Positions 1-18,978 of a DNA stretch of 24,743 bases are shown here, in pieces. The notes below the pieces were generated by a model. The model worked only from the letters and a program-made list of their open reading frames with translations. It did not search any database and was not told where the DNA came from. A program made the position numbers and the translations under genes. The stretch is from an uncultured delta proteobacterium (lineage in GTDB: Bacteria > Desulfobacterota > Syntrophobacteria > Syntrophobacterales > Syntrophobacteraceae): assembly GCA_963808625.1 (NCBI GenBank), contig CAWEHK010000009.1, positions 1-24,743 of the forward strand, written 5' to 3'. The stretch's first letter is position 1. Each line of letters starts with the position of its first letter.

Positions 1-17
1 CTGATGCTCCCTAAGTA

Positions 18-1883
18 GTGATATCAACAATCGTTAGGCGTCATGACGGTTCAGTACAGGATGACCAATCCAGACTGGCCCTTGCCCTTTCGCCAGTCCT
101 GTCGTCAGAGAACAACTGGGGAAGAAGGAGCAGGCGAGGACGAGCGAAGGCACGAGGCAGCACTGACGAGCCGAATAAGTCTTTCATGCAGCATTGCCAA
201 AAGGATTGGTATGAGATCGGGCAAAAGAAAAAGGTAGAAGGACCTCTTTCCGACAAGGGAGCAGACGTTGAAAGGACTGAGACTGTCAGGACCCCAAATT
301 CTAGCGTTCTTGGTGAAACCATTGCCACAACGGGTATTGCTCGTGATATTAGCGAGCGCGAGCAGGCCGAGGAGGCGCTCAGTGAGTCCGGGAATAAATA
401 TCGAACTGTTTTTGAAACAACTGGAACCGCAACGATACTGGTGGAGGAGGACACCACAATCTCGCTGGTAAATGTGGAATTTGAAAAGCTCTCCGGATTT
501 CTAAAAGAGGAAGTTGAGGGGAAAAAGAGTTTCTCGGAGTTCATTGCCGATGATGACCGGGAAAGACTGCTCCAGTACCATCATCTAAGAAGGATTGATC
601 CAAGCGCGGCACCACGCGAATATGAAGCCCGGGTTGTTGATCGGAAACTCAACGTTAAAGATGTTATTTTTACGGTGGGAATGATTCCAGGGACAACAAC
701 AAGTGTGGCTTCCATACTCGACATCACCGATCGCAAACGAGCTGAAAACGCACTGAGAAAGAGTGAAGAGCGCTTTCGTTCCCTCACTGAGAATTCACCT
801 ACAGGGGTTTTCATCATCCAGGACGGACATGTTGTCTACCACAATACCGAACAGGAGAGACTTTTTGGGCGAGGCTCACCACAAAAGATTGTCGATTTCA
901 GTCGGATTCATCCCGACGATGCGGAAGGGGTGAGAGCCCTTTACTGCAGCATGCTCAGTGAGGAAGGTCGGAAATGTGATATCGACTTCAGATTTTATCC
1001 GTGCGGTGAGAGTTGATGAGTTGTCGAGAATGCGATGGATTCATTGCCAGGCAAGCGTGATACAACATTCGATGGCAAAGAGGCCATACTCGTGAATGCG
1101 AGCGACATCACCCATATTAAGGAATTGGAACACCTTCTGAGGATAAAAGCCCGAATGGCCTCCCTTGGCCGAGTCGCTACAGGTATTGCTCATGAGCTGA
1201 GAAATCCTTTATCAGGTCTTAATATCCATTTAACCAACCTGGAAAGAACGTTGGATGACTTGCCCATGGAAGTGCCAACAGCCCAAAGGATAGGAGACAT
1301 TGTCGAGCAACTCAGATCCGTTTCCAATAGAATCGAAGGCGTGGTGAGAAGGGTCATGGACTATGCCAAACCATCGGACCCCCAATTTGCTCTGGGAGAC
1401 ATCAACCAATGCATTGAACGAGCCCTTCAGCTTTCTTCCGTTACCTTGCAAGACCGCGGTATCACCATCAGGAAACTACTGACTGAGAATCTCCCGGAGT
1501 GTTGTGCGGATTTCCACATGATCGAACAGGTCATCTTGAACCTTATTACCAATGCTGCTCAGGCTATGAAAACAACAGAGCAAGGCAAGATCATAGAGAT
1601 CTCTTCATCCGTCGTAAATGATTCTATTTTCATCAAGGTTTCCGACTCGGGACCAGGGGTTGCCCCTCCCTTGAGGGACAAGATCTTTGATCCTTTCTTT
1701 ACCTCTGACAGCGGAGGGACCGGTTTAGGGCTCAGCATCTGTCAGAGAATTATTGTCGACCATGGAGGGTCCTTGTATCTATCCGCAGGCAACTTGGGAG
1801 GGGCTCAGTTCGTGATCGAGCTCCCCGTCGGAGAAGGTGAGCACATAACCGATGCTCTCATACTCTATACATGTAGTCGATGA
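18..1883 (+). CDS. PAS-domain sensor histidine kinase (HisKA/HATPase_c), split by a frameshift near 1016-1035; true start uncertain
   Basis: ORF 18..1016 has PAS/PAC motifs (TGIARDISEREQAEEAL, LDITDRKRAENALRKSEERFRSL). ORF 1035..1883 has H-box GIAHELRNPL, N-box QVILNLITNA, G1 DSGPG, F-box IFDPFFT and G2 GTGLGLSI. Confidence 0.85.
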
Positions 1884-3231
1884 CGATAAAGCAATCAGGA
1901 AAGGTGTGGGTATGGCTTTGGAGCCGAGCTACCGGGTCAAGACCTTTCCCTCGGCTGAAGATGCCCTTCGCGTCATCAAAGAGAGCCCGCCCGACCTGGT
2001 GTTGCTTGATGTCCGACTCCCCGGCATGAGTGGAACGGATGCGCTCAAAGAGATCAAGAGCCTCTCTCCCGATACTCTGGTCATCATGATAACCGCCTAT
2101 GAGGACTATCGAACGGTCATCTCTGCCATGAAGCTCGGGGCTTATGATTATGTGGTGAAACCGATTCACATGGAAACCCTGGAGCTCAACATTCGCAATG
2201 CTCTGGAAACAATTAGACTCCGAAAAGAGGTCCAAGCCCTTCAGGAAAAATATCTCGGAGAGAACCTGCCCTTCTTCATTGGCGAAAGCGATGCCATCCA
2301 AAAGGTGATGGAGCTGGCAAACGCCGTTGCTATGAGCCCGGATACCCCGGTCCTCATTTTAGGAGAAACGGGTACGGGTAAAGAGTTTATTGCCGGCAGC
2401 ATCCATTACAAGAGTCCGAACTTCCGGGGGCCTTTTATTGCTTTGAACTGCGCCAGCATTCCTAATGATCTCGTAGAAAGTGAAATCTTCGGATACGAGA
2501 AAGGGGCCTTCAGTGGCGCCCGTATTGCGGGAAAGGAGGGTTTGATTGAACAGGCCGAGGCGGGGTCGCTTTTTTTGGATGAGATCGGAGACCTGAGCCT
2601 GGAGGCCCAGGCAAAACTGCTCCGCTTCCTGGAAACGGGCGATTATTACCGAGTTGGCGGGACGAAAAAGGTACAGGTAAAAACCAGGATCATTTCCGCC
2701 ACCAACAAAAGGCTGGAAGCCATGGTAGAGGATGGTCGCTTCCGAGAAGACCTCTATTACCGGCTGGCGGTGATCAAGATAGAAATTCCTCCCTTAAGCC
2801 AGCGGCGTGATGACATCATCCCTATTGCCAGGCATTTCCTCTTGTTCTTCGGTCGAAAGTACGGAAAACCTTTCGCTTCCCCCTCCCCTGAAGTTGAGGA
2901 TTTTCTGATTAACTACAACTGGAAGGGGAATGTTCGGGAATTAAAAAATGTCATTGAACGAGCGGTCCTCATCGACAAAGGGCCGGAACTGACCCTCGAA
3001 GCTCTCGATATCGTCAAACCTGGAAACGCTCAAACCTCACCACGGGGAATCGCCTTTCCCTCACTGGCACCCACCGGCGCCGATCTCTCTGCCATGCGCG
3101 AGTCCATGGATCGCTATTATTTCGAGGAGGCTCTCAAACTTGGCGAAGGCAGTGACAGCAAGGCCGCCCAGCTTCTTAATCTGAATTACTACACCTTCCG
3201 GCGCCGCAAAAAACAGCTTGGGCTCAAATAG
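1852..3231 (+). CDS. Sigma-54-dependent response regulator (REC-AAA+-HTH, NtrC/AtoC type)
   Basis: Receiver motifs VVDDD, LLDVRLPG and KP; Walker A GETGTGKE; GAFSGA loop; Walker B LFLDEIG; FREDLYYRL; WKGNVREL; C-terminal Fis-like HTH. Overlaps the kinase 3' end. Confidence 0.95.
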   Translation: MLSYSIHVVDDDKAIRKGVGMALEPSYRVKTFPSAEDALRVIKESPPDLVLLDVRLPGMSGTDALKEIKSLSPDTLVIMITAYEDYRTVISAMKLGAYDYVVKPIHMETLELNIRNALETIRLRKEVQALQEKYLGENLPFFIGESDAIQKVMELANAVAMSPDTPVLILGETGTGKEFIAGSIHYKSPNFRGPFIALNCASIPNDLVESEIFGYEKGAFSGARIAGKEGLIEQAEAGSLFLDEIGDLSLEAQAKLLRFLETGDYYRVGGTKKVQVKTRIISATNKRLEAMVEDGRFREDLYYRLAVIKIEIPPLSQRRDDIIPIARHFLLFFGRKYGKPFASPSPEVEDFLINYNWKGNVRELKNVIERAVLIDKGPELTLEALDIVKPGNAQTSPRGIAFPSLAPTGADLSAMRESMDRYYFEEALKLGEGSDSKAAQLLNLNYYTFRRRKKQLGLK

Positions 3232-3338
3232 CCCCGCCCCCCTCTCCTGTGGTTTGGCAATCTTTCCAAATCACCTCAGCTCAAATTTATTCGTAAGGTC
3301 CCTTTAATACAGAGAAAAGGTTCTGCACCGCGAGGATC

Positions 3339-3380
3339 TTGCACTTTTGCCAATCGGTGCCTTGCATTTTTGCACAATCG
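3339..3380. promoter_or_regulatory. Tandem candidate enhancer (UAS) boxes for the adjacent sigma-54 activator
   Basis: Direct repeat TTGCACTTTTGCCAATCG (3339-3356) / TTGCATTTTTGCACAATCG (3362-3380), each with TGCA-N-TGC dyad character, about 70-110 bp upstream of a -24/-12 motif. Confidence 0.55.
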
Positions 3381-3450
3381 AGCCCGAAGGCGATGCCCTT
3401 CGGCAAGTGCAAAAGGTTGGTCCATAAGGTTCTCCTGCTATCCCCGCTTC

Positions 3451-3467
3451 CTGGTATGGTTGATGCA
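3451..3467 (+). promoter_or_regulatory. Sigma-54 (-24/-12) promoter
   Basis: CTGGTATGGTTGATGCA has GG-N10-GC spacing, resembling TGGCAC-N5-TTGCA. It lies downstream of a bEBP gene and upstream of the secreted-protein cluster. Confidence 0.7.
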
Positions 3468-3606
3468 AGTCCGAAACACCACTACCTCGTGGCGATAGCG
3501 GGGTTGGCAGTCGCCCTGGTTATTCTTTTTGGCAGCTTCGATCGAGCAGGATTTCACCGGACGATTCCGGCTTGCTCCATCACTTAACCTAAATTTGGAG
3601 AGTATC

Positions 3607-4424
3607 ATGAAAACGCAGAAGAGTTTCCTGATTGCCGTCATTTGCCTGTTTCTTGGATTCATTGCAGCCATTTCGCTGGCGCAACAAGCACCAGGATGAT
3701 TTCTGGCTGGGGAGTGGGCGCCGGGGCCAATCTGGTCGTTACATCCGTCTCTGGTCCTGCCACGGCCATTCATAATCAGACCATATCGGTGACCTACAAG
3801 GTGAAGAACCAGGGTGACGTAGCTTCAGGTTCCTACCAGGTGGGGCTCTACCTGTCGACGGACAATAAGATTGACCCTGCCACCGACCGCCTGTTGGGAA
3901 ATGTGACGGTTTCCACAGGGCTGGCACCTGGGCAAAGCAAGAAGACGACTTCAAAGGTATTGGTTCCGATCAATGGATTGTCCGGGAAGTATTACTACGG
4001 TGCGGTGGTGGCAAGCAGCAAGAAGGCTTCATCGAAGCAGGTTTACCTCGTCCGTTATTCATTGGCGGACAATAATGACACCGTGACCGACCACAAGACC
4101 GGCTTGATCTGGCAGACGGCTGATGATGGACAAGCAAGAAATTGGGCTGATGCCAACCAGTACTGTGTGGATTTGGTTCTTGGCGGTAAAGCGGACTGGC
4201 GGCTGCCGAGGATTGATGAGTTGCAAACGATTATGGATTATTCCCGATCTCATCCTGCCATCGATCCGGTGTTTGAGTGCCGCTCGACCAGTTACTGGTC
4301 GAGCAGCTACCGTCGTCTACAACCCGGACTACGCGTGGCGCGTGGATTTCGACTATGGCAGCGTGACGGGACGATAAGACCTACCAGCTATTACGTCCGG
4401 TGTGTGCGCGGCGGATCTTGGTAA
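3607..4424 (+). CDS. Secreted CARDB + Lcl C-terminal (DUF1566) protein, paralog 1 (frameshift ~3690-3715; compensating indels in the 3' end)
   Basis: GGAG RBS then ATG 3607 with signal peptide MKTQKSFLIAVICLFLGFIAAISLA. CARDB-like ANLVVTSVSGP..VTYKVKNQG; DUF1566 motifs VTDHKTGLIWQ, WADANQYC, DWRLPRIDEL, YWSS, YVRCVRGG. Confidence 0.85.
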
Positions 4425-4579
4425 TTTGGTCCCTTGACCTTTAACAAATCAGACTCGGGTACGCGTCGGGTGACCGGTGAACCGACGCGGATAGAGTGTT
4501 GGACGAGCTGCCTTTCCCAGACCGCAAGCTTAGGGTACTTGGCTTTTGTTTTTTTATCAGCTGCCCTTAGAAGGGGGAC

Positions 4580-4698
4580 GTGTTCGATAGCTCTGTAAGT
4601 CTATGGAGCTTTCAGAGCATAGTAGGGATGGAAAGCCAGGGATTGTAAAGACAGCCGAGCCGGGTTGCCTGGAAAATGGTAGCTTGGCTTTTGTTTTT
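4580..4698 (+). ncRNA. Candidate GEMM-I (c-di-GMP-I / c-AMP-GMP) riboswitch with overlapping intrinsic terminator
   Basis: GGGATGGAAAGCCAGGG...ACAGCC..GCCGGGTTGCC resembles the P3/P1 3' half of Geobacter-type GEMM-I aptamers as recalled (GGGACGGAAAGCC..AGGG..GACAGCCGGGATGCC). Hairpin GCCGGGTTGCC/GGTAGCTTGGC plus TTTTGTTTTT at 4659-4698. The P2 region is atypical. Confidence 0.5.
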
Positions 4699-4737
4699 CT
4701 GTATCAACTACTAATAAAGGAAGACAAGGTGGACACT

Positions 4738-6912
4738 ATGATCAAGAGAACCATTGGAGTTTGTTTGTGTTTGTTGACATTTCTCTCACTAGCATCAGTG
4801 GCCACCGCGGCTGAATCACCTTCCGCGTTGGGAGGATATACATATACGACAATCATTCCTCCTGGATCTACGTACGCAGAAGTTCGAGGAATCAATAATA
4901 ATGGTGAAGTCATTGGACATGCCATCCAATGGTGGGTTCCCTAGGGCTTTTCTCTACAGTGGCGGGACGTATACCGAATTGAATCCTCCTGGATCGATTT
5001 ATTCGATTCCTACAGAAATCAAAGATAACGGTACGGTGATAGGATATTTCGGAGACAGCTCGGGGAAATGGAAGGGTTTTGTCTACAGTAAAGGGATGTA
5101 TACCGAATTGAGTGCTCCTGGATACACTGAATGGGATTAGTATCCTCAAGGAATCAACAACAATGGTATCGTTATTATAGATGGAATTAGTAATAATGGT
5201 GCGCATCCCTGCTGGATTCCTTTACAATAGAGGTACATATATCCAATTGCTTTCTTCTCAATTTTACGCCAGCATGCAGCCGAAGGGATCAATGATAAAG
5301 ATGTTGTGCTTGTAGTTGGAACGCGCTATGATGAATCATCTGGAACCTATAGACAGCCATGTTTTTATCTACAGCGAAGGAAGGTTATTCGAATTAAATC
5401 CTCCTGGACCGAACTTATGCACATTATATTGGGAAATTTTGTCTATTGAATGGAATCAACAATGACGGTGAAGTCATTGGATATGGTTATGACAGCTCTT
5501 TGATAGGTCATAGTTATCTCTACAGCGGCGGGACCTATACCGAAATACTTCCTCCTGGTTGGATTAACGTAGACGTTCAATCTCCATTTAATAAAATCAA
5601 CAATAACGGTGAAGTGATTGGAGGTGGCATTGACAGCTCCGGGAACTATAAGGGTTTTCTCTACAGCAAAGGGACCTATACCGAACTGATTCCTCCCGAA
5701 TGGAGCCTTAGTTCAGGCTGCTTATGGAATCAATGATAAGGGAGCGGTGATTGGGTCTGGTGCTGACAGCTTTGGGAACAATAAGGGGTTTGTATACAGT
5801 GAAGGGGCCTACACCGAATTGAGTCCTCCTGGATTCTACAGCACCAGCTCCTAGAGCAATCAATAATAACGGAGCGGTCATTGGATCTTTTTTCTGAGGG
5901 CCCCTATGCGGTCCCGAAGTGTTATCTAGCCATACCCCTTCCCACTCAACCCACCACCAATAACCCTCCAGTGGTTGATGCTGGAATTAACACAGAACTA
6001 TCCAGCGATACATTCCAGACTATCTCTATTCATGGTAAAGCAACGGACCAGGACCAAGGCGATATACTCAGTTATCGCTGGCGAGAAGGGGCAGACTGTT
6101 CTGTTTGACTGGACATCCGTGGGTTCGAATGGCGAATGTCCTCTCGATCATGGTATGGTTTCACTCTCCATCGGTAGTCACACCTTAACCCTTGAAGTGT
6201 ACGATGGAAAGATGCTACATCGGACGACATGATCTTAACCATCGGAAACTCTACTCCACATGCCGTAGCAACCGGGGCTGGAACCTATCCGATCAATGCT
6301 CCGGTGACTCTGAGCGGAAACGTATCTGATTATGACGGGGACAAGTTGACTTACGAGTGGCGGGAGGGGGCAAACGTGCTCTGCTCCGGCACTGTGCAAA
6401 CCGCTCCGGGAGGCGCCCCGGTAACCCTGCAACAAGATTGTATCCTGATACATCCCGGCTTGGGTGAGCACCCGATATTCCTTCAGGTTGCCGACGGTAT
6501 CAACGATCCAGTGGCAAGTAACCTTATCAAGGTTGAGGTCATCGATAATCAAGCCCCTGCCCTGGCTTCCGTTGCGAATCAAACTATCTTGTGGCCACCC
6601 AACCATAAGATGGCTCCCATTACCATTCAAGCCAATGCCAGTGACAACAGCGGATTACCGGTAACCTTGACGGCTTCCATCACGAGCAATGAGCCGGAAG
6701 ATGGTTTAGGTGATGGCGATAACGCACCCGACTGGACCGAACCAGTGGTAGACCAGGAGAAAGGGACGATCACGCTACAGATCCGAGCTGAGCGCTCCGG
6801 AAAAGGAAAAGGCCGCGAGTATTTCGTAGCAATCACAGCCACGGATTGCTTCGGCAACTCAAGCTCAGCAAGTGTGAAGTTTATTGTGCCTCACGATCAA
6901 GGCAAAAAATAA
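4738..6912 (+). CDS. Secreted protein with HAF-like extracellular repeats, PKD/Ig-like domains and a C-terminal LWPPNHKM domain; multiple frameshifts
   Basis: ATG 4738 with signal peptide MIKRTIGVCLCLLTFLSLASVATA. Repeats of GINNNGEVIG..KGFLYSxGTYTELxPPG are spread across ORF fragments. Also NNPPVVDAG..ATDQDQGDILSYRW, SDYDGDKLTYEW, ILWPPNHKM..RAERSGKGKGREY. Confidence 0.75.
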
Positions 6913-6942
6913 TCCATTCCCAAGGCGGTAACAGCGCCAATG

Positions 6943-6980
6943 AGGCAGGGTCAGCAATGGCTCTGCCTTTCTTTGGGTTT
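6943..6980 (+). terminator. Rho-independent terminator
   Basis: AGGCAGGGTCA-GCAA-TGGCTCTGCCT stem-loop followed by TTCTTT, 30 nt after the stop at 6912. Confidence 0.6.
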
Positions 6981-7081
6981 CACCTAAGCCTGAACGCTAT
7001 CTGACGGCTGTGACCGATCAACCAGCGGAAGTTTGATGCGACATTACCAGCCCCAATGTTAACCTCAATTTGGAGAGTATC

Positions 7082-7903
7082 ATGAGAGCACAGAAAAGTT
7101 TCCTCTTTGCAGTCAGTTGCCTGTTTCTGGTATCCATTGCAGCCATTTCTCCGGCGCAACAAACACTGGATGATCTTGTGGCTATACATGTGGGCGCCGG
7201 GGCCAATCTGGTTGTTACTTCGGTCGCTGGTCCTGTCACGGCCCTTCATAATCAGAAAATATCGGTGACCTACACTGTGAAGAACCAAGGCGACGCAGTT
7301 TCAGGTTCCTACCAGGTGGGACTCTACCTGTCGAGGGACAATAAGATTGACCCTGCCACCGATCGCCTGTTGGGAAATGTTACGGTCTCCACAGGGCTGG
7401 AGCCAGGGCTAAGCCAGAAGACCACTTCGAAGGTATTGGTTCCGATCGATGGACTGTCCGGGAAGTATTACTACGGTGCGGTGGTGGCGAGCAGCAAGAA
7501 GGCTTCATCGAAGCAGGTCTACCTCGTCCGTTATTCACCGAATAATGATGACACCGTAACCGACCACAAGACCGGCTTTACCTGGCAAACGGCTGATTAT
7601 GGACCACTAGGGAGTTGGGCTGATGCCAACCAGTACTGTGTGGATTTGGTTCTGGGCGGCTATGATGACTGGCGACTGCCGCGGCTCGATGAGCTTCAAA
7701 CGATTGTGGATTACTCCCGATCTCATCCAGCCATTGATCCGGTGTTCGCCGTCGACCCCACGCCCGGTTACTGGACGAGCACTACCATCGTTGGCTACCC
7801 TGACCACGCGTGGTACATGGAGTTCTCCCAAGGCCTCGTGGGGGGGGCGCCCAAGGCCGGCGCCGGAGGTTACGTGCGGTGTGTACGCGGGGGATCTTGG
7901 TAA
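7082..7903 (+). CDS. Secreted CARDB + Lcl C-terminal (DUF1566) protein, paralog 2 (intact)
   Basis: Same RBS/leader as paralog 1. Signal peptide, CARDB-like domain, VTDHKTGFTWQ, DDWRLPRLDEL, YWTSTT, AWYMEF, YVRCVRGGSW. Confidence 0.9.
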   Translation: MRAQKSFLFAVSCLFLVSIAAISPAQQTLDDLVAIHVGAGANLVVTSVAGPVTALHNQKISVTYTVKNQGDAVSGSYQVGLYLSRDNKIDPATDRLLGNVTVSTGLEPGLSQKTTSKVLVPIDGLSGKYYYGAVVASSKKASSKQVYLVRYSPNNDDTVTDHKTGFTWQTADYGPLGSWADANQYCVDLVLGGYDDWRLPRLDELQTIVDYSRSHPAIDPVFAVDPTPGYWTSTTIVGYPDHAWYMEFSQGLVGGAPKAGAGGYVRCVRGGSW

Positions 7904-7925
7904 TTTGGCCCTTTGACTTTTTGGG

Positions 7926-7957
7926 AAGCCGGAGAGAGATCTCCGGCTTTTTGTTTT
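7926..7957 (+). terminator. Perfect 10-bp hairpin with GAGA loop plus T-tract (terminator and/or DGR target hairpin)
   Basis: AAGCCGGAGA-GAGA-TCTCCGGCTT then TTTGTTTT, 22 nt after the stop of paralog 2. Confidence 0.7.
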
Positions 7958-8229
7958 CGGGGCCCAGGAGCCAGGAGCAAGTTCCTGGTGATAATGAAAG
8001 CCCCAAAGGCGAGCCCAGGAAATGTCGCAAGACCTGGGCTCTTTCGTAGAGGCCCTCGACAACTCTCATAAGGAAGGGAGGTTTTCCAACCCGCCAGGCT
8101 GCCATTTTGCCCTTATACAGACACATCCGAACCCCAGGGAGTGACAAAGGCTTCAGTCTCGATCATCTTTCATTCCCTTCCCCAAACTCGGAATCTCTAT
8201 GGTAGAGATACATATCCTCCCCGCTGGCC

Positions 8230-8466
8230 CTTACACCACCCATTCCATTGGCTTGCCGCAGCCGAAAACGGAGACGCGAAGGCCATGCCGAACTCGGCCT
8301 CATTTACAAGCGTGACGGCAAAGCGGATTTCGAGCTTTTCATCAAGAAAGGCGGCAGGTGGAAGCTTCCAAAGAAGCCCTCGCCTGGATGCGATAGGCCT
8401 TTGTCGATCAGCGAAAGAAAGAGGGCAGCCAATGCTGGGAAGCGCGATGAAAAGGCACCCCAATAG
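8230..8466 (+). pseudogene. Possible Sel1-like repeat gene remnant
   Basis: Joining frames gives WLAAAENGDAKAM(A)ELGLIY, and nearby KEALAWMR, resembling the Sel1 consensus. There is no intact ORF. Confidence 0.3.
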
Positions 8467-8548
8467 GCGATTTTGTCACAATTTTGGCTTTTGCACTGTG
8501 TATCCACATTTGAGCTCGATCTTCGACACATATCGTGGTCCTGGTGGT

Positions 8549-8966
8549 CTATCCGAATCTCCCCAGAACAGCACGCATGAATGCTCGAAGATCTTCCAAA
8601 CATTCCCATGCTGCCCGATAGACGATCCCAAGGTTCACCTTCCCGTATTCATGCACAATCAGATTCCGAAAACCCACCGCCTGGATCATCTTCTCCGTTA
8701 ACCCAGAATCGATAATAGTATTCTCTTCAAGAAGGTAAAAAAGCTCATTAGGTGCTGCCGGCGATGCCGAGTTCTTCATCACTGACCACATGCGCCGCCA
8801 TATCGATGCAATTCTGTACGGCCATCTGAAGGTTGAAAAGAATGCTTTCCTGCCGGTCCAAATCCTTCAGGAACACATCGAGATCTATCTGTCGTTTGTC
8901 GACGACGCGGGCCAAATGGTGTTCGGTGGTACTGCATTTTGCAGCGAGAATTCGCTTATTGACCAT
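8549..8966 (-). CDS. hepT: HepT-like HEPN ribonuclease toxin (DUF86), frameshift ~8760
   Basis: Two ORF fragments: LQMAVQNCIDMAAHVVS and GFRNLIVHEY (HEPN Rx4H motif). Overlaps the stop of the upstream MNT gene. Confidence 0.85.
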
Positions 8967-9384
8967 CGTGCTTCACTCCGAGATGATCCTTTAGCCTTCG
9001 ATGGCACTGATCAAGGAAAGGTGCAAAGTCGGCAAAAAGGGAAACACTGACCATTTTGAAGTGAGCAAGCGCATCTTCATCTCTCACATGGAGGCACCGG
9101 CCTCTGAAGATGGCTTCGATCCTGGCGAGATACGAGGCATCATTCAGGATGAGTATGTGGACATCCTTGCGCAAAAGACGTCCGAGATCCTGCAACAAGC
9201 GTCGGATGACCAGGGTTCGGTCTACTCTCCCATAACGATCATCCAAAAGGACCGCGATGCCGACATCGCTCAGTGGTCGCTGGCGGCTGCGCGCGAATGA
9301 GCCAAAGAGATAGGCTGCAACGATGCAAGGGACATCGCTGAAGTAGGATTCCAGGTTTTGTATCATTTCGGTATCTGAGGCCAT
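8956..9384 (-). CDS. mntA: Minimal nucleotidyltransferase (MntA-like antitoxin), copy A; DxD motif reads DVG
   Basis: AAYLFGSFARSRQRPLSDVGIAVLL. Paired with the HEPN gene. The ORF extends to 9435; ATG 9384 chosen by analogy with copy B. Confidence 0.85.
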   Translation of the reverse strand: MASDTEMIQNLESYFSDVPCIVAAYLFGSFARSRQRPLSDVGIAVLLDDRYGRVDRTLVIRRLLQDLGRLLRKDVHILILNDASYLARIEAIFRGRCLHVRDEDALAHFKMVSVSLFADFAPFLDQCHRRLKDHLGVKHDGQ

Positions 9385-9536
9385 CTCAAAACTCTGCGCA
9401 TGCCATTCGTGGTCTCGATCCTGCACTGACCGCATTTCAGCAAAAGGAGCGGATCATTTAGGCCCCTCTCTTCAATGGCTTCGCCACAGAGCTAAGGGGG
9501 ACGCCACCGGCCGAGGGCTTAAGGATGGAACTTGTG

Positions 9537-10488
9537 TCAATGCCTGGTTTCTCTGTCCTTCCTGCAAACATATTCAAGACCGCCGAAAACATACCGGGCG
9601 ATTTGTTCTCTTGCGAGCAGATCTGGATGGTTCGCTGCAGATCTCCCGGTAGCACGCCAAGGGACGCAGCCATTTCATCGACCGTGCAGGGGCGTCTCTG
9701 CACCATGTCCATAATCCGCTGGTCGGTGTTCAGATCTCGCTCCAGACCTCGAAAACCTTTGAAGTACCCGATGATCTCGGTGCTGCCGGCAGGAAAAAAC
9801 TTACGCACCGCCTCCATCTTGTCTGACGAAAGTCCCTGGCAACAGGGATCGGCGGGCGGGCGCACCACGGTGTTGAGCTCGACCTGATCAGGATGCAGGA
9901 GGTCGATTAGCGGACGCATCTTTTTCAGTTCATCGGGGTGGTTGTTGAAGCCGGAAACGAGCATGATTTCGAGGTGGAATTGCCCTCGGTAATCTTTCCG
10001 AAAGGCCTTCAAACCTTCGAGAATGAGCGAGAGGTCAAGACTCGGATGGGGCCGGTTCAGGCTCCTAAAAACGGCCTCCGTAACCGCATCCAGGGAAGGC
10101 ACCACGCAGTCAGCAGCAAGGAGTGCCTCGCGCACCCTGGAATCCCAGAGCAGCTATCCATTGGTGAGTAACACGAGCGGTAGTGACTGGAAGTGCCTTT
10201 TAATGACCCGGATGTGCTCGCCAAGAGGTGTTCATACAGGGTAGGTTCGCGCCAGCGCTGGAAGAAGTCAGCACGTCAGCACTGTCAGGAAAATCCCGGA
10301 AATAGGCCAGTAAATCCTCGATCACTTGATCAGGATCAACAAAAGTTTGCATCTTCACCGTAAGGTGCGTCGTCGGGCCGGACTCGCGGTACAACGCCAT
10401 CGTAACTGCACGTCTTGGGAGGAATCACATCGATTCCAAGTGATCGCCCGAAGCGACGTGACGGCACCGGCCCAAAAATTACTGACAT
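9537..10488 (-). pseudogene. Radical SAM protein (COG0731-like Fe-S oxidoreductase), copy A, degraded
   Basis: [43 protein letters not shown] and RRPCT are spread over several frames. The 2nd and 3rd Cys codons of CxxxCxxC read GGC and CGC. Stop placed by homology to copy B. Confidence 0.75.
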
Positions 10489-10538
10489 ACGGCCACCTTC
10501 GTTCATCTTTGGATTAAGCAACTCTGTGATGGGTAATT

Positions 10539-11504
10539 CTATTGGACGATTCCGACACGGGAAAGGAGATTCTCACGGAAATCCCTGGATTCTTCGGATG
10601 TTCCATCAGCAATCAGGTCGATATGGTAGAATCTATCGGTGGTAGGGGATTCTTTTTTAGCCAGTTCCACATTCAGATCGGTCACACCAACCATCGTCCA
10701 GCATTCGACATAACCATCCTTGCGAGCCTTTTGGTGGCTTTTCTCTGCTTCACCGATTCTATTGTGGATATTCGAGTAGTCTTTCCCGCCCTTGATCTCA
10801 ATTGCCACCAGATTGTGAAATCTACCTGAGGGCAGCTCTTCTCTGATGCATATGTCCGGATCATTTGCAAATTCGACCCTGACAATGCGGCCGGCCGCGT
10901 TTTGAAGTTTGAAATATTTCTGAGTGCTCGACACTACGGCAGGAGCAACCATTGAGTCTATCAATTCAAATACGCGCCGTGTTGCTCGACTACCATACAG
11001 GTTTAAAGCGCCGCCGCGAAGCTGTGGGCCGAGGGTGAGCAGCGTGAGTTCATGCACTAAATTTTGTGACAAATGGCCAGTTCCGGCAACGAGAAGCTCG
11101 GCGCTGGCGCAAAGCGCTCGACAGAGCTCATACAACTGGTCCCCCTGGTTGGCAATGAGCCGTCCCTTATCCTCCATTGATTTGAAAGGAGCAAATCCAT
11201 ATCGTTCACCGTAGAATTGTTTCTGGGAAAACCCCAGTAGCAGACGATAGTATCCCAATAATCTGGGCTGACTTCTGAGGACATAGGGCACAGCAAAGAT
11301 GATCTCGCCTCGCAGCCCCCAGCTTGCCAGCCTTTGCAGAGCTGAACCGGGCACCAGATCGCCAAGTTCCTTGTCGATGTCGGGGATCGACAGGTTCGAA
11401 ACGGCGGAAAGCAAAGCGTCAAGGAGATAGATTTCCCGGACTTGCATCAGCCGCTGGAAGAACTCCACTTGCAGATCAGGTTCCGGGATCTTGAATAACG
11501 TCAA
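10539..11504 (-). CDS. Type II restriction endonuclease, XcyI/Cfr9I/XmaI family (predicted CCCGGG)
   Basis: [49 protein letters not shown] (PD-(D/E)xK, characteristic of RE_XcyI as recalled). ATGA overlap with the MTase stop. Confidence 0.85.
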
Positions 11505-12376
11505 TTCATTTGCTCCCTGTCATAAGTGAATAACAATAGCTGGGTATTTTGAATCCGTTTGACAGCGAGCTGAACATAATCGGCATTGAGTTCAATGCCT
11601 ACATATTTCCGGCGCTGTTGCTCGCATACAGCGCCCACTGTACCGGACCCGAAGAACGGATCGATGACCCAATCGTCAGGCTGAGATCCAGCCAAAATGC
11701 AGGGTTCGACCAGCTTGGACGGAAAGGTCGCAAAGTGGGCCCCCAGAAATGGCTCTGTTGGGATGGACCAGACGGTGCGCCGGTTTCTCCCGTTCGGTTC
11801 CGTGACGTTTTTAGAATTATAATAATATTTCGAAGACTTGGTCAGAAGAAATACATATTCATGAGCCCGGGTTGGTCGGTCCCTGACGCTTTCCGGCATG
11901 CAGTTGGGTTTCTCCCAAATGATATCACTACGAAGATACCAGCCCGCTTCCTGAAGGGCAAAGGCAAGACGCCAGGGAATTCCCACGAGATCTTTGGGTT
12001 TCAGACCTGAAGGCGTTGGCGCCCGGTAGGACATTGCCCTGATGGGGTTCTTCTTGTCAGGCGCCCGGTATGCCCTGTTACCGCTCGTATAGGAATCGCC
12101 TATATTCAGCCATAGCGAACCATCTTCCGTGAGAATGCGGCGAACCTCTTCAAAAACCGCAACCAGATGCTGAATGTAGCTTGCGGGTTCTTCCTCCGCG
12201 CCGATTTGCCCCTCCGCGCCATAATCCCTTAGCCCCCAATAAGGCGGAGAGGTGACACAGCATCTGAAAAAATTCGCCGGACACGATTTGAGCAAGAGTT
12301 GCGCATCACCCAAGAATATTGTGGACTCTTTGATACCGGCTATGTCCTGCCTACCCGGTTCACATAAGACTTTCAT
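11501..12376 (-). CDS. Beta-class N4-cytosine DNA methyltransferase (M.Cfr9I/M.XcyI-like)
   Basis: Motif IV VTSPPYWGLRDY precedes motif I DPFFGSGT; also HFATFP. Adjacent to the cognate REase. Confidence 0.92.
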   Translation of the reverse strand: MKVLCEPGRQDIAGIKESTIFLGDAQLLLKSCPANFFRCCVTSPPYWGLRDYGAEGQIGAEEEPASYIQHLVAVFEEVRRILTEDGSLWLNIGDSYTSGNRAYRAPDKKNPIRAMSYRAPTPSGLKPKDLVGIPWRLAFALQEAGWYLRSDIIWEKPNCMPESVRDRPTRAHEYVFLLTKSSKYYYNSKNVTEPNGRNRRTVWSIPTEPFLGAHFATFPSKLVEPCILAGSQPDDWVIDPFFGSGTVGAVCEQQRRKYVGIELNADYVQLAVKRIQNTQLLLFTYDREQMN

Positions 12377-12534
12377 ACATTAAGCCACTCTGGTTTGGTT
12401 TGGAAAGCCTGCATAAAGTTCACCAAATGAGGCAAACCTTTCAATCTCAGTGCTTTCGGCAGCGGCAAGGAACAGGTCCGCCGTGTGGCGCTCTTACCGG
12501 CCGCCCCTCTCATGATTGAACGTCGGATATCCTT

Positions 12535-12618
12535 ATCTATCTGTCGTTTGTCGACGACGCGGGCCAAATGGTGTTCGATGGCACTGCATTTTGCAGCGAG
12601 AACTCGTTTATTGACCAT
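12535..12618 (-). pseudogene. Truncated hepT 5' fragment (28 codons) fused to unrelated sequence (ORF 12373..12618)
   Basis: MVNKRVLAAKCSAIEHHLARVVDKRQID is near-identical to the N-terminus of 8966..8883. Homology ends abruptly at 12535. Confidence 0.85.
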
Positions 12619-13036
12619 CGTGCTTTACTCCGAGACGATCCTTAAGCCTTTGATGGCACCGGTTGAGGAAAGGTGCAAAGTCGGCGAAAAGAGAAACACT
12701 GACCATTTTGAAGTGAGCAAGCGCATCTTCATCTCTCACATGGAGGCGCCGGCCTCTGAAGATGGCTTCGGTCCTGGAAAGATACGACGCATCATTCAGG
12801 ATGAGGACGTGGACATCCTTACGCAAAAGACGTCCGAGATCCTGCAACAAGCGTCGGATGACCAGGGTACGGTCAACTCTCCCATTACGATCATCCAAAA
12901 GGACAGCGATGTCGACATCGCTCAGTGGTCGCTGCCGGCTGCGCGCGAACGAGCCAAAGAGATAGGCCGCGACGATGCAAGGGACTTCATTGAAGTAGGA
13001 CTCCAGTTTCTTTATTATTTCGGTATCTGCGGCCAT
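12608..13036 (-). CDS. mntA: Minimal nucleotidyltransferase (MntA-like), copy B, intact GSx10DxD
   Basis: AAYLFGSFARSRQRPLSDVDIAVLL. GAGAGG RBS before ATG 13036; the ORF extends to 13087. Confidence 0.88.
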   Translation of the reverse strand: MAADTEIIKKLESYFNEVPCIVAAYLFGSFARSRQRPLSDVDIAVLLDDRNGRVDRTLVIRRLLQDLGRLLRKDVHVLILNDASYLSRTEAIFRGRRLHVRDEDALAHFKMVSVSLFADFAPFLNRCHQRLKDRLGVKHDGQ

Positions 13037-13199
13037 TTCAACCCTCTCCACATACCATCCGTGGTCCCGCTTTTGCACTGGCGGCATATCAGCAAAAAGA
13101 GCGGATCATTCGGCCTCCCAGGAGGCTCCCCTCTTCGATGGTTTCGCTATGGAGCTCAGGAGGACGCCACCGGCCGAGGGCTTTAGCATGAGATTTGTC

Positions 13200-14148
13200 T
13201 CAATGCCTGGTGTCTTCGTCCTTGCTGCACACGTATTCGAGACCGTCGAAAACTCGATGGGCGATCTGTCCTCTGGCGAGCAGATCAGCAAGGGTTGTTT
13301 GCAAGTCTTCCGGCGGCACACCGAGGGACGCTGCCATTTCCTCGACGGTGCAGGGGCGCCTTTGCACCATTTCCAACACCCGTTGGTTGATATGGAGGTC
13401 TCTCTCCATTCCCTGGAAGCCCTTAAAGCGCCCGATGATTTGCGTTCTTTGAGAAGGAAAAAACTCCCGTACTGCCTCCATCTCGGCTAACGAAAGTCCC
13501 CGGCAACAGGGATCGGCCGGCGGGCGCACCACGGTGTTCAGCTCGACCTGATCAGGCTGCAGGAGGTTGATCAGCGGGCGCATCTTTTTCAATTCATCAG
13601 GGTGATCGTTGAAGCCGGAAACGAGCATGACCTCGAGGTGAAATTGCCCCCGATAGTCCTTGCGAAATGCCTTCAAGCCTTCGAGGATCACCTCGAGATC
13701 GAGGCTCGAATGGGGCCGGTTCAGGCTCCGAAAAACCGCTTCCGTAACCGCATCCAGAGAAGGCACAACGCGGTCGGCTGGCAAGGAGTGCCTCGCGCAC
13801 CCTGGAATCCCAGAGCAGCGAGCCATTGGTGAGCACCACGAGCGGCAGTGACCGGAAATGCCTCTTAATCATCCGGATGAGGTCGCCCAGAGGTTCATAC
13901 AGCGTGGGTTCGCCGGCGCTGGAAAAAGTCAGAACATCCGCGCTATCAGGAAAATCCTGGAAATAGGTCAGTAAATCCGAGATGACCTGATCGGGATCAA
14001 GAAAAGCCTGTCGCTTGACCGTAAGATGCGTCGTCGGTCCGGACTCGCAGTAAACGCAATCGTAACTGCAGGTCTTGGGAGGAATCACATCGATTCCGAG
14101 GGATCGCCCCAGGCGGCGTGACGGCACCGGCCCAAAAATCGTTGTCAT
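13200..14148 (-). CDS. Radical SAM protein (COG0731-like), copy B, one frameshift ~13780
   Basis: [28 protein letters not shown] (CxxxCxxC), SSAGEPTLY, LTNGSLL. The C-terminal half is in ORF 13200..13826. Confidence 0.9.
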
Positions 14149-14233
14149 GCTGGTCTTTCCAGTCACTGCAGTGGCCTCATTCGAAACAGGATCTCATAAC
14201 CTGACGATGTTTCCATAAAGGTCTGCAATTTTC

Positions 14234-14297
14234 AGGGCAGACACTCCAGCTTGCCCTTTTGGCAGGTCGGCATGGCAGGCTGGAAAGCCTGCCCCAC
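14234..14297. repeat. REP-like palindrome pair (GGCAGGCTGGAAAGCCTGCCCCAC family)
   Basis: GGCAGGCT-GGAA-AGCCTGCC-CCAC at 14274-14297, with a degenerate inverted partner at 14234-14256. The same unit occurs at 19579-19634. Confidence 0.7.
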
Positions 14298-14694
14298 ACG
14301 GCTTGGCACGCTGTCAATGGTTCGTCCTAGTATTGAGAATCTCTGACAAAGTATATAGCGGACGCATTGTCAAAATACCACCGTATTGTAAATCTTGCTG
14401 CCTTCTCTTTCCCCTTTTATCCTTGCCAAGATTATCCGGGATAAAGTAATTTTCAACTCAGCGGTCAATGACTCCCTGTCAGTGACCGGATGGATAAGGA
14501 ATTCCAATGCACTCAAGGATGCTCATGCGCTCGGGAGGGACGATGCCGGTTCCTTCTCTTCAATGGCTTATATGCGAATGACACCAGGCAGGGCGGTTTT
14601 TTTGAAATGATGGGAAGGGACCCAGAAACGAGTCCTGCTGAAGAGCTTCGGATATTATTCACGATTGAAACCATACACTCAACTGGAGGCAACA

Positions 14695-16370
14695 ATGCGC
14701 AGTGATTTAATGAAAAAAGGGATCGAGAAGGCCCCTCACCGTTCCCTCTTTAAAGCCATGGGCTACACGCAGGAGGAGCTTGACCGGCCGCTGATCGGCG
14801 TCGCGAATTCTGCCAACGAGATCATTCCCGGGCACATCCATCTCGACAAGGTGAGTGAAGCGGTAAAAGCCGGGATCCGTCTTGCCGGAGGCACTCCGAT
14901 CGAATTCAGCACCATCGGGGTGTGTGACGGCATTGCCATGAACCATCAGGGCATGCGCTATTCGCTGGCAAGCAGGGAACTGATTGCGGACTCGGTTGAG
15001 ATCATGGCCATGGCGCATCCCTTCGACGGGTTGGTCCTCATTCCCAACTGCGATAAGATCATCCCGGGAATGCTGATGGCCGCCATGCGGCTCAACATTC
15101 CGTCCATTGTCGTCAGCGGCGGTCCCATGATGGCCGGGCGCGCCGGGGGCAAAGCCGTGGACCTGGTGTCCGTCTTTGAGGCGGTGGGCTCGTTCAAATC
15201 CGGAAAAATTACTACCGACGAACTCCAGCAACTGGAGGATTACGCCTGTCCCGGATGCGGCTCCTGTGCCGGCATGTTTACCGCGAACTCCATGAATTGC
15301 CTTACCGAGGCCCTGGGTATGGGCCTTCCCGGCAATGGCACGATCCCCGCCGTCACGGCCGCCCGGATCCGTTTGGCGAAGGTGGCGGGAATGAGGATTA
15401 TGGAACTGGTGCATCACAACCTCTGTCCGCGCGATATCGCCACCAATGAAGCCTTCGAGAATGCCATCGCGGTGGATATGGCCCTCGGGTGCTCCACCAA
15501 CACCGTCCTTCACGTCCCGGCCATCGCCCACGAAGCGGGGATTGATCTCGATCTGGAGACCTTCAACCGGATCAGCGCCCGCACCCCTCACCTTTGCAGC
15601 CTGCGGCCCTCGGGCGCGCATTTCCTCGAAGATTTGAATGCTGCCGGAGGCGTCCAGGCGGTCATGAACGAACTCGCTGCCAGAAATCTGATCAATTTGA
15701 ACGCCATGACCGTCACGGGTAAGAACGGTGGGCGAAAACCTCAAGGGATTCCCCGTTCTTGATCGCGATGTCATTCGCTCCCTTGAGCAGCCCTATCATC
15801 GTGAGGGCGGAATCGCCGTTCTGTATGGCAACCTGGCCCCGGAAGGCGCCGTCGTCAAGCAGTCCGCGGTCGCTCCCGAGATGCTCCAGCGGACCTGCCG
15901 GGCACGCGTATTTGAGAGCGAGTCCGACGCGGCAACAGCGATTCTCGATGGGGTTATCAGGCCCGGAGATGTGGTCGTGATTCGCTACGAAGGACCCAAG
16001 GGCGGCCCGGGTATGCAGGAAATGCTCACCCCCACAGCCGCTCTCATCGGTATGGGTCTGGGCAAAGAAGCTGCCCTCATCACCGACGGCCGCTTCAGCG
16101 GCGGGACCCACGGGGCCGCGATCGGGCACGTGTCGCCGGAAGCCGCAGTGGGCGGGCCCATAGCCCTGGTGGAAGAAGGAGATGACAATTGTCATCGACA
16201 TTCCGAACAAGAAACTCGAACTGCGTGTCGATGCGGCCACTCTCCAGCAGCGCCGTGACCAATGGACCGCTCCCGCTCCCCGGATCAAGGAGGGATATCT
16301 GGCTCGCTACGCTCATCTGGTGACTTCCGGTTCCCGTGGTGCTATTCTTGAATGGGGTAACTGCAAGTAG
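14695..16370 (+). CDS. ilvD: Dihydroxy-acid dehydratase (frameshifts ~15730 and ~16185)
   Basis: [105 protein letters not shown]. Confidence 0.95.
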
Positions 16371-16386
16371 CCGAGGAGTAGGTCCC

Positions 16387-17205
16387 GTGGGCTATGTCTT
16401 CCAGTTTGAAGATGCTCTGCGCTACGACCACTGGTTCACTTCTGAGCCGGGGCGCACCGCGGCCGCGATCGAGCAGGGTCTGCTCTCGCGGTTGTGGGCG
16501 CCCAAGGCGCCCCAGAGTGTCCTCGAGGTCGGTTGTGGCACCGGGCTCTTTCTGGAATGGTTCGTGCGCATGGGGCATCAGGTTACCGGCCTGGACCCCT
16601 CGCCTTACATGCTCAATGTTGCGCGCCGCCTGGCCCCGGAGCGCGTGGCCCTGGATCGGGGGTTTGCGGAAGAGCTGCCGTACGAAGACAACGCCTTCGA
16701 CACGGTGGCGCTGATTACCGCTCTGGAGTTTGTGAACGACCCCCATCTGGCCCTCCAGGAAGCCCTGCGAGTGGCGCGGCGACAGGTGCTCCTGGGGGTG
16801 CTGAACAAATATTCGGTAACCACATGGCAGCATTGTTGGGGGAGACTCTGGCGGCCTTCCATTTACAGTCATGCACACTTCTTCAGCATTTCTCAACTCC
16901 GGCACATGGTCACCGAGGTCCTCAGCGGAGCGGTCCCAATTCAATGGCGCACATGCCTCTTTTTCCCTGTACACTGGTTGCGTTATCTCCATTTCCTCGA
17001 ATGTTCCCGGTTGCTCCATCGGCTTCCCTTCGGTCACTTCATCGGGATGCGGATTGACCTGCGCTATCCCCTCAGGACGGTGCAGCAACCGCTATTGTGC
17101 AAAATCGGCTCCGGAGTTGGACAGACGCAGCTCCACACGCTCTCTTGGCGAAGTCCGGGAGGAAGAGGCCGCAATCAGAATTCTTTGCACTCACCTGATG
17201 GTTGA
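16387..17205 (+). CDS. Class I SAM-dependent methyltransferase
   Basis: VLEVGCGTG, GLDPSPYML, AEELPYEDNAFD. GAGGAG RBS before GTG 16387. Confidence 0.88.
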   Translation: MGYVFQFEDALRYDHWFTSEPGRTAAAIEQGLLSRLWAPKAPQSVLEVGCGTGLFLEWFVRMGHQVTGLDPSPYMLNVARRLAPERVALDRGFAEELPYEDNAFDTVALITALEFVNDPHLALQEALRVARRQVLLGVLNKYSVTTWQHCWGRLWRPSIYSHAHFFSISQLRHMVTEVLSGAVPIQWRTCLFFPVHWLRYLHFLECSRLLHRLPFGHFIGMRIDLRYPLRTVQQPLLCKIGSGVGQTQLHTLSWRSPGGRGRNQNSLHSPDG

Positions 17206-17255
17206 TGGTTGATGGTTGAAAGTTGATGGAAAGTTGATGGTTGATGGTTGATGGT
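17196..17255 (+). repeat. Heptamer tandem repeat (TTGATGG)n with variants
   Basis: TGATGGT TGATGGT TGATGGT TGAAAGT TGATGGAAAGT TGATGGT TGATGGT TGATGGT. Confidence 0.9.
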
Positions 17256-17301
17256 GGGCATCGGGAAAGGGCGAAACGTTCATGCCCAGAGGAACCACAA
17301 C

Positions 17302-18314
17302 ATGAAAGAGGCGATGTTTTACAGAAGACTGGATGGCGGCAAGGTCGCATGCTTTCTTTGTGCTCAGTTCTGCCGGATCGAACCTGGGAAACGAGGCCAA
17401 TGCGGAGTGCGTGAAAACCGCGACGGTACCCTCCTGACCCTGGTCTACGGGAGGCTCATCGCCCAGAATGTGGACCCGATTGAAAAGAAGCCTCTGTATC
17501 ACTTCTACCCCGTCACCCGAAGCTATTCGATTGCCACGGTAGGGTGCAATTTCCGTTGCCTTTTCTGTCAGAATGCCGACATCTCGCAGGCGCCGCGAGA
17601 GTACAAGGCCATCTTCGGACACGATGTCCTCCAGAAGACGTCGTCGCTCAGGCCCGAAACACCCATTGTGCAACCATCTCCTATACCTACACCGAACCCA
17701 CGATGTTTATGGAATATGCTCTTGACGTTGCCAGGAAAGCCCACGAGGTGGGCATTCGCAATGTTTTTGTGAGCAACGGGTACATGACCAGGGAAGCCAT
17801 GGAGGCCATCGGCCCCTATTTGGATGCGGCCAATGTCGATCTCAAAGCCTACTCCGACCACTTCTATTCCGAACAGTGTGGGGCCCACCTCAAACCGGTG
17901 CTCAAAACTCTTCAGGAAATGAAAAAAAGGGACATCTGGCTCGAGGTCACCACCCTCCTCATTCCAGGTCTTAACGACGGTCCTGATGAATTGCGACAAC
18001 TCGCAGCATTCCTGGCCTCATTAGACCCGGAAATTCCATGGCACATAAGCCGCTTCCATCCCACGTATCGTCTTACCGATCGCCCAGCCACCCCCGTGGA
18101 AACCTTGCACATGGCCCGTGAGATCGGTTACGAGGCCGGCCTGCACTACGTCTATACCGGCAATGTACCGGGTGACGACGGGGAGAACACCTATTGTCAT
18201 CGATGCAAGCGACTGCTCGTCGAGCGTTTCGGTTTTTCCATCCAGAGGCGGGGGCTTACGGAGGGAAGGTGCACCCAATGTGGGACCCCGCTGTGCGGGG
18301 TTGCGATCGGTTGA
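17302..18314 (+). CDS. amrS: AmmeMemoRadiSam system radical SAM enzyme (frameshift ~17625)
   Basis: MKEAMFY..CFLCAQFC..GQCGVREN, DPIEKKPLYHF, GCNFRCLFCQNADISQ, SYTYTEP, HISRFHP, YVYTGNV, CHRC..CTQC. Confidence 0.92.
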
Positions 18315-18972: not shown

Positions 18973-18978
18973 GGGGCC

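Follow-up and report, generated by a model that had tools for sequence, protein, structure and literature searches.

What wrote the last codons of two sister genes in a syntrophobacterial genome, and is the writer still present? The two genes lie 3.5 kb apart on contig CAWEHK010000009.1 of an uncultured delta proteobacterium of the family Syntrophobacteraceae (GenBank assembly GCA_963808625.1), whose 24,743 nt are the window analyzed here. Both end in an Lcl/DUF1566 domain, and they diverge at their 3′ ends. An original prediction, made from the letters alone, read these ends as variable regions (VRs) of a diversity-generating retroelement (DGR) with no reverse transcriptase (RT) or template repeat (TR) in the window, and proposed that they were either targets diversified in trans by a remote DGR or fossils of one. 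In DGRs, the RT makes cDNA from TR RNA and errs at adenines, and this cDNA takes the place of any VR having enough homology and the right 3′ end. AAC and AAT template codons become NNC and NNT, and retrohoming returns all non-adenine positions to the template. The window is contig C9 of its genome (G000), a 4.8-Mb assembly of 54 contigs that is 84.6% complete. Genomes, loci and contigs are labeled G, L and C, and C47a and C47b are the two VRs on C47. A DGR origin of both tips is near certain. With modest confidence, we favor the reading that both were written by an Lcl-class DGR elsewhere in the chromosome, that paralog 1 was rewritten recently while paralog 2 is frozen, and that the avd-TR-RT core has been lost.

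The duplicated unit spans 3584–4442 and 7059–7921, within a base of the limits first proposed (~3584–4443 and ~7059–7922). Identity is 84.0% over 868 nt, and homology stops at 4442/7921. Paralog 2 (7082–7903, forward strand) is intact and encodes 273 aa with a hydrophobic N-terminus, a CARDB domain (Pfam E 6.5e-9) and an Lcl_C domain (E 8.6e-29). Paralog 1 (3607–4424, forward strand; ATG and TAA checked) has the same architecture, with CARDB (E 7.6e-10) and Lcl_C (E 7.2e-23) detected on the 3642–4421 frame. The original prediction treated it as in frame, having silently read through its indels. As assembled it is frameshifted, with five clusters relative to paralog 2: a net one-base shift at ~3690–3713 and four in the VR (~4307, 4366–4372 twice, and 4385–4391). 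Paralog 1 may be a genuine pseudogene or a product of mis-assembly.

VR1 occupies 4278–4412 and VR2 7754–7891, both on the forward strand. The ends had been placed at 4290–4424 and 7766–7903; their divergence holds, and the VRs begin ~12 nt earlier than that, at 4278 and 7754. At codon positions 1 and 2 the paralogs differ at 33/89 VR sites versus 13/126 sites in the upstream Lcl part (Fisher p=3e-6). Differences by codon position number 22/20/39 in the 655 nt of the whole upstream coding part and 21/12/9 in the VR. The seven codon pairs cited for an NNC pattern (GTC/ATC, TAC/GGC, AAC/TAC, TAC/CAC, CGC/TAC, GAC/TCC and AGC/CTC) are all present in the per-codon table, as are both cited exceptions (CCG/CCT and GAT/GAG). 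The NNC signature is real, but in the literal pair it is weaker than was implied, with third positions differing at 9/44, because paralog 2 has drifted.

The VRs were projected onto the TR of locus L131, a metagenomic DGR cassette, with a base-neutral aligner. VR1 mismatches this TR at 17/41 adenines and 8/92 other positions. VR2 mismatches it at 28/42 adenines and 23/93 other positions, the latter count bearing out the drift suspected for paralog 2. VR1 and VR2 differ from each other at 24/41 template adenines versus 18/92 other positions (p=2e-5). Differences gather at template adenines in both VRs, and third positions are kept by reset in VR1 only. The VRs overlap DUF1566 and align with TRs of avd-TR-RT cassettes, as in the CLec2 or category 'd' (DUF1566) class of DGR targets.

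Matching TRs in complete cassettes elsewhere confirm that the CARDB-Lcl genes carry DGR variable regions and that these belong to the DUF1566/Lcl class. The VR motif was found at 43 metagenome loci, of which 41 were examined after two overlapping duplicates were dropped. L131 and L125 are complete avd-TR-RT cassettes. Their TR/VR mismatches fall at 18/42 adenines and 0/93 other positions in L131, and at 21/46 and 25/46 adenines and 0/89 other positions each time in L125. G037, of the same order, has a target-avd-TR arrangement at a contig end, with mismatches at 17/39 adenines and 1/93 elsewhere. Three further cognate-class finds (G147, G269 and G131) are among eight non-own matches in 151 genomes of the phylum, and in a VR-motif search of 401 phylum genomes the own genome is the only match. 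The cognate RTs are long (604 aa at L131:796-2607 and 524 aa at L125:5898-7469) and carry a C-terminal extension that weakly resembles MutS domain I (NF003810 E 0.007 in L125). In G131 (L163/L171, G131:C4), a few hundred inserted bases split the TR of an Lcl-class DGR. In viral contigs, the strict VR motif found no locus and the loose motif found one without an RT, the cognate-RT search found three distant RTs only (33–36% identity), and the paralog 2 search found no locus, so there is no sign of a phage-borne Lcl-class DGR.

Six VRs with this scaffold are found in the own genome: two on C9, two on C47, and one each on C50 and C33. Fourteen of their 15 pairs differ preferentially at L131 TR adenines (p 1e-4 or lower), the exception being paralog 2 versus C33 (p=0.1). 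Two template variants were distinguished by eye. A 46-codon variant is seen in VR1, C47a, L113, L114 and, decayed, in VR2, and a 45-codon variant in C50, probably in C47b and, decayed, in C33.

The age of the two tips was read from third codon positions. Retrohoming resets non-adenine positions, and therefore co-targets should share third positions even between distant genes. VR1 and C47b differ at 1/44 third positions in the VR versus 38/62 upstream (p=3e-11). The corresponding counts are 3/44 and 31/62 for C50, 1/44 and 9/63 for C47a, 0/44 and 34/63 for L113, and 0/44 and 31/63 for L114. L113 belongs to a different organism, with 52% protein identity to paralog 2. Different TRs differ from each other at 11–25 of 45 third positions (10 pairs), so these counts place VR1 and its co-targets in one template lineage. 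A near-identical TR likely wrote VR1 recently, because third positions are shared where the upstream DNA is saturated. VR1 is assigned to a 46-codon 'alpha' template type. L113/L118/L122 and L114/L115 represent two differently built targets that agree with each other at all 46 third positions and with VR1 at 44/44, and no RT is found in the DNA examined around them. A 46-codon template thus appears, by sequence comparison, to be shared across distant hosts.

Third positions are reset in four of the six own-genome copies and not in paralog 2 or C33. VR1 and VR2 differ at 9/44 in the VR and 14/63 upstream, and VR1 and C33 at 8/44 and 14/63. Against L113, VR2 differs at 11/46 third positions in the VR and 35/63 upstream. 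The VR of paralog 2 has stayed closer to distant copies than the sequence upstream of it, as expected after an old overwrite. Its rewriting likely ceased long ago, leaving a frozen allele. Each option of the original prediction thereby fits one gene, paralog 1 having the look of a recent target and paralog 2 that of a fossil.

The missing machinery was sought in the whole assembly. RT matches in the own genome lie only on C36, C43, C38 and C54, in agreement with the predicted absence of an RT or TR from the window. The genome search that had been proposed, for a cognate TR next to an RT and avd, found none in the 4.8 Mb. No cognate TR was recovered across the genome by nhmmer --max with the six VRs or by blastn with three homologous TRs plus flanks. 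An AAC/AAT-density scan gave 19 windows, among which the FGE TR of C43 alone resembled a template; the scan passed over the C38 TR and is not exhaustive. Profiles of five cognate RTs and seven avds recovered only the C43, C38 and C54 RTs, MutS and generic four-helix proteins. Taken together, the nhmmer, blastn, tblastn and profile searches reveal no fragment of a cognate TR, RT or avd in the 54 contigs. Differences confined nearly to adenines of a same-genome TR are seen only for the C43 FGE-type DGR, and not for VR1 or VR2. Diversification in trans by a remote DGR, as first proposed, therefore stands as to target status and not as to current activity, since no part of the cognate machinery was found in the assembly. 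Of 96 genomes of the order, G037 alone yielded the TR (at most eight candidates scored in each). A cognate RT at E<=1e-30 was found in none of the 95 other genomes by a search that missed a DGR RT in G004 found by another query.

Several matches were set aside. Eight PF05635 matches are generic four-helix proteins or the C43 avd and were rejected as a cognate avd. Weak tblastn matches of the RT-to-C47 spacer at three places (E to 3e-5) were treated as spurious, apparently reflecting repeated Fn3-like sequence, and a C38 match to the RT tail is MutS itself. The C43 and C38 RTs are two DGR RTs. The C36 RT is presumably group II intron-like, and the C54 RT is unrelated. A complete FGE-type DGR lies at G000:C43:89579-97540, with the RT at 93240–94553, the TR at 94684–94803, an avd-like gene at 95236–95565 and two VRs. 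One of these VRs lies on a long multidomain protein with a region that we take to be a P-loop-type NTPase. A second DGR, at G000:C38:16600-23150, has a frameshifted RT and an accessory gene that we take to be HRDC-like. A-biased matches to its template region occur close by and also on C12, C37, C33, C43 and C30, the latter likely being remote or decayed FGE targets.

Related loci bear signs of core loss. In L125, the core sits between two targets of distinct types. At L042 (G006:C2, 7734–10665; G006 is 99% complete in 10 contigs), the order is target 1, a broken avd and target 2. Over 49 aa the broken avd is 71–78% identical, and the targets have neither TR nor RT between them. A 15–19 aa scrap of avd is left between the targets of L044 (G023), and nothing lies between those of L041 (G003, 8048–9783). 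In L108/L130, an avd (100% identical to L131 over 123 nt) is followed by a 110-nt match to the RT 3′ end and then by target 2. The own genome has a hybrid gene at G000:C50:10746-13441 (reverse strand), ~12 kb inside a 175-kb contig. It joins a target-1-type N-terminus (65% to G037), a VR and an extension of target-2 type (36% to L125 over 374 aa). Of 14 other target-1-type genes, some of them redundant entries, 12 end directly behind the VR, and the two exceptions continue into a second Lcl-like domain. The C50 hybrid is possibly a scar of avd-TR-RT excision by VR-to-VR recombination.

Under the favored reading, an Lcl-class DGR acting from elsewhere in the chromosome would have written the last ~45 codons of both CARDB-Lcl genes. 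Paralog 1 would have been rewritten recently, and rewriting of paralog 2 would have stopped long ago, its allele perhaps being retained by selection. The cognate avd-TR-RT core would have been lost from the lineage, possibly by recombination between two flanking VRs. Several points weigh against this. A cassette may be missed in an assembly of this completeness, and TR/VR repeats are prone to drop out. The order-wide RT search was of limited sensitivity, as the G004 RT shows. VR1 has 0–1 third-position differences from the shared template, so any core loss must have happened recently. Within its 135 nt, VR1 has four indel clusters (background 0.36–0.74/kb), which could represent mixed alleles and current activity. 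The template variant in the C50 hybrid has 45 codons and that of VR1 has 46, so the hybrid is no proof that the template of VR1 itself was lost. No same-strain reads cover VR1. In the contigs of sequencing runs X1–X3, one 222-nt contig of X1 (depth 2.2) covers VR2 (7767–7988) with one other letter, a near-identity that speaks for a frozen VR2, and no 99% piece over VR1 is among the 24 of 128 matches listed. X1 may be the source sample. Only 0.05–0.07 of words are contained in these runs, which give no evidence of habitat or strain.

The most durable alternative, possible though in our judgment somewhat improbable, is that remote targeting is still active. The cassette rewriting paralog 1 and C47a would lie in the ~15% of the genome that was not assembled, or some members of the population would carry it on a mobile element, and paralog 2 would have escaped. 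The near-zero third-position drift of VR1 and a conserved element after the stop codon agree with this, as do the indels gathered in VR1, C47b and the G001 VRs, such as a mixed-allele consensus might give. In G131, a VR on a different contig from the DGR (L175, G131:C7) matches the surviving half-TR, with differences at 10/23 adenines versus 1/52 other positions. The own C38 DGR likewise has A-biased matches on other contigs, and remote targets are described in passages of PMC5758913. Against it stand the empty search of the 54 contigs, the failure to find the cognate RT in other genomes of the order or the TR beyond G037, and the core deletions repeated in kin. In C47a and C33, many indels lie upstream of the VR as well.

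Indels gather inside the VRs of two indel-prone assemblies: L045 and L046 (G001), and window 4278–4412 and G000:C47:26270-26407. L045 has none in 666 nt upstream and several in the VR. Such clusters may be a consensus over mixed alleles or over paralogs.

It is improbable that both tips are old fossils of the gene duplication, kept similar to other copies by ordinary gene conversion without recent retrohoming. This would fit paralog 2 and C33, and paralog 1, C47a and C33 may be pseudogenes, with 5–8 frameshift clusters each. Conversion would, however, copy all three codon positions, and VR1 differs from C47a, C47b and L113 at 19–20 first and second positions versus 0–1 third positions. L113 moreover belongs to another organism. 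For VR1 the idea is largely refuted.

We consider it very unlikely that no DGR was involved and that positive selection on a ligand-binding surface mimics the NNC pattern in a GC-rich genome. The C-terminal CLec (C-type lectin) residues are expected to form the binding site, and third-position C is common at 54–57% GC. The template-specific third-base pattern refutes this account. At the five AAT codons of the L131 TR, VR1, C47a, C47b, C50 and C33 have T as the third base in 5/5, and VR2 has it in 2/5. The C/T match to the more distant L125 TR is poor, as expected because the templates differ. Selection on amino acids does not make third positions more conserved in the VR than upstream, and true TRs with the same scaffold exist. 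That a resident DGR diversifies VR1 and VR2 is scarcely credible and already refuted for the TRs: both systems are in the same assembly and the C43 TR is intact (its two VRs mismatch at adenines in 16/16 and 15/16), but the templates are FGE-type and fail to align meaningfully with VR1 or VR2 (best E 0.23 over 10–14 nt), and the C43 RT is just 39% identical to Lcl-class RTs.

A broader extension of the favored reading, which we rate as less likely than not, is a hit-and-run cycle. A mobile Lcl-class avd-TR-RT core would enter, rewrite in trans the many copies of a resident family of secreted CARDB-Lcl binders and be removed through recombination between flanking VRs, leaving hybrid scars and a layered archive of binding specificities datable by third-position drift. 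If so, a large ligand-binding family would have been built by episodic, self-limiting hypermutation. On the favored reading, the locus offers a clear natural case of DGR targets after the departure of the machine, with sister genes of which one is freshly overwritten and one frozen, and the third-position reset test dates targets without their template. About 100 CARDB-Lcl homologs are among the 120 matches listed of 925, and these may be DGR products. The VR of P0007 repeats that of C33 at 41/44 residues, differing at three. Among 41 homolog pairs with at least 80% N-terminal identity, drawn from 86 of the first 100 homologs and not independent, variable-site identity is at least 0.6 in nine and at most 0.3 in 27. 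Frozen VR alleles are common in the family, a point in favor of the main reading of paralog 2. RT-anchored surveys miss such genes, according to the portion consulted of PMC8144416, so DGR-made diversity would be undercounted. With these deletion scars and a hybrid gene, the idea that a DGR is dropped after selection of a good variant can be tested directly. The concept of remote or leftover targets is already published, which limits the surprise.

The closest precedent is Treponema denticola. Sections of PMC4891356 describe scattered CLec genes that bear VRs, a core that isolates have gained or lost, and targets kept in isolates lacking the RT and TR, one leftover target matching another TR type. 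The likeness lies in the dispersed CLec targets, the gain and loss of cores and the targets kept without a core. Unlike the Tvp targets of those sections, the targets here are of the DUF1566/Lcl (CLec2) type with CARDB, the cognate TR has come to light only in other organisms, and loss is backed by deletion scars and a hybrid gene. The passages of PMC5758913 also treat category 'd' or CLec2 targets (DUF1566; Legionella LdtA type) and non-adjacent targets. Shared with that category are the VR at the DUF1566 3′ end, appended Ig-like domains, avd-TR-RT cognates and the MutS-like RT extension. That survey assigns remote targets on near A-only differences to a same-genome TR, which the VRs here do not have. 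CARDB is not among the appended domains in those passages, and its supplementary tables may list CARDB targets. Cyanobacterial CLec paralogs with remnant TR-VR homology, such as Nostoc all3226, and the suggestion that genomes shed their diversification components after selection has fixed on a good variant, appear in part of PMC7517822. Targets are duplicated and dispersed there as here. According to the same part, cyanobacteria keep their DGRs and their targets are mostly cytosolic kinases or peptidases, whereas the present products are predicted to be secreted and the core is absent from the assembly. PMC10686091 was considered for comparison and, in the section consulted, was not relevant. 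A literature search, with supplements outside its scope, found no paper on a CARDB-Lcl DGR-target family.

Both paralogs are predicted to be secreted ligand-binding CARDB-Lcl proteins; the hydrophobic N-terminal ~25 aa were recognized by eye rather than by a signal-peptide predictor. A model of paralog 2 (pLDDT 86.9) matches the Legionella Lcl C-terminal domain (PDB 8q4e; Z 13.7, rmsd 5.0, 119 aligned), TvpA (2y3c; Z 9.6, rmsd 3.1, 122 aligned) and Mtd (1yu0; Z 8.9, rmsd 3.0, 115 aligned). It also matches a CARDB domain (Z 10.2, rmsd 2.8, 94 aligned). The three CLec-fold matches cover residues ~150–272, with the VR at the 3′ end of the domain. The Foldseek result is dominated by the Ig-like domain, and Lcl is the only match in a PDB sequence search (E 0.008). 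The modeled domain shares the CLec fold with Lcl, TvpA and Mtd at 8–20% sequence identity, and the protein lacks a collagen-like region.

Candidate cis elements lie at the VR 3′ ends on the forward strand. At 4413–4442, the VR1-type 3′ end and ~18 nt kept after the stop form a candidate initiation of mutagenic homing (IMH) element, shared with paralog 2, C47b, C33, C50 and the cassette VRs. Its counterpart for VR2, with the conserved post-stop stretch, lies at 7892–7921 and is supported by paralog homology and VR comparison. In DGRs, the IMH of the VR differs from the IMH* that closes the TR. The 3′ end and post-stop stretch are common to the VRs, and the three TRs compared end differently. 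In DNA folding, an 8-bp GC-rich inverted repeat with a 12-nt loop that is not GRNA was found downstream of VR1 (4462–4489). A 10-bp stem with a GAGA (GRNA) loop and then a T run follows VR2 (7926–7949) and is missing from the terminator-scan list. AAGCCGG..CCGGCTT repeats number eight genome-wide. A GRNA-loop hairpin with a T run follows VR2 and C33 and was not seen within 80 nt of four cassette VRs. DGR target hairpins are described, in the part consulted of PMC3240598, as 7–10 bp, GC-rich, with a GRNA loop and downstream of the VR. The 7926–7949 hairpin is likely a terminator that is also shaped like a DGR target hairpin. It was rejected as decisive DGR evidence, reading as a terminator too and being absent behind the four cassette VRs.

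Between the paralogs, a gene at 4738–6912 (forward strand) encodes HAF-type repeats (TIGR02913 HAF_rpt E 2e-10) followed by PKD/Ig-like domains (PKD-like below cut-off), with internal repeats D3/D7 and many broken frames. Its product is predicted to be secreted, and the gene is no part of a DGR. The frame-switch background of the assembly is 28 in 78.7 kb (19/62 genes) or 61 in 82.9 kb. At this indel load, the frameshifts of paralog 1 may be assembly error or true decay. Genes split by frameshifts at 14665–16288 and 17248–18314 illustrate the load; we take them to be housekeeping genes, dihydroxy-acid dehydratase-like and radical SAM. The tetranucleotide correlation of C9 (0.955) is the second-lowest of the 54 contigs (median 0.989), so C9 may be mis-binned. 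Lcl_C genes are present in 8/8 genomes of the genus. Window positions 1–13,200 have only scattered matches in five genus genomes and ~13,200–19,500 is common to them, so the paralog pair lies in a variable region. The window also holds a second duplication (8549–10488 and 12373–14166, spacing ~3.65 kb) containing a nucleotidyltransferase and HepT-like pair and part of a radical-SAM-like gene. It flanks an XcyI-type restriction endonuclease (10539–11504) and a DNA methylase (11501–12376), and the arrangement at 8549–14166 looks like an insertion with long duplicated flanks.

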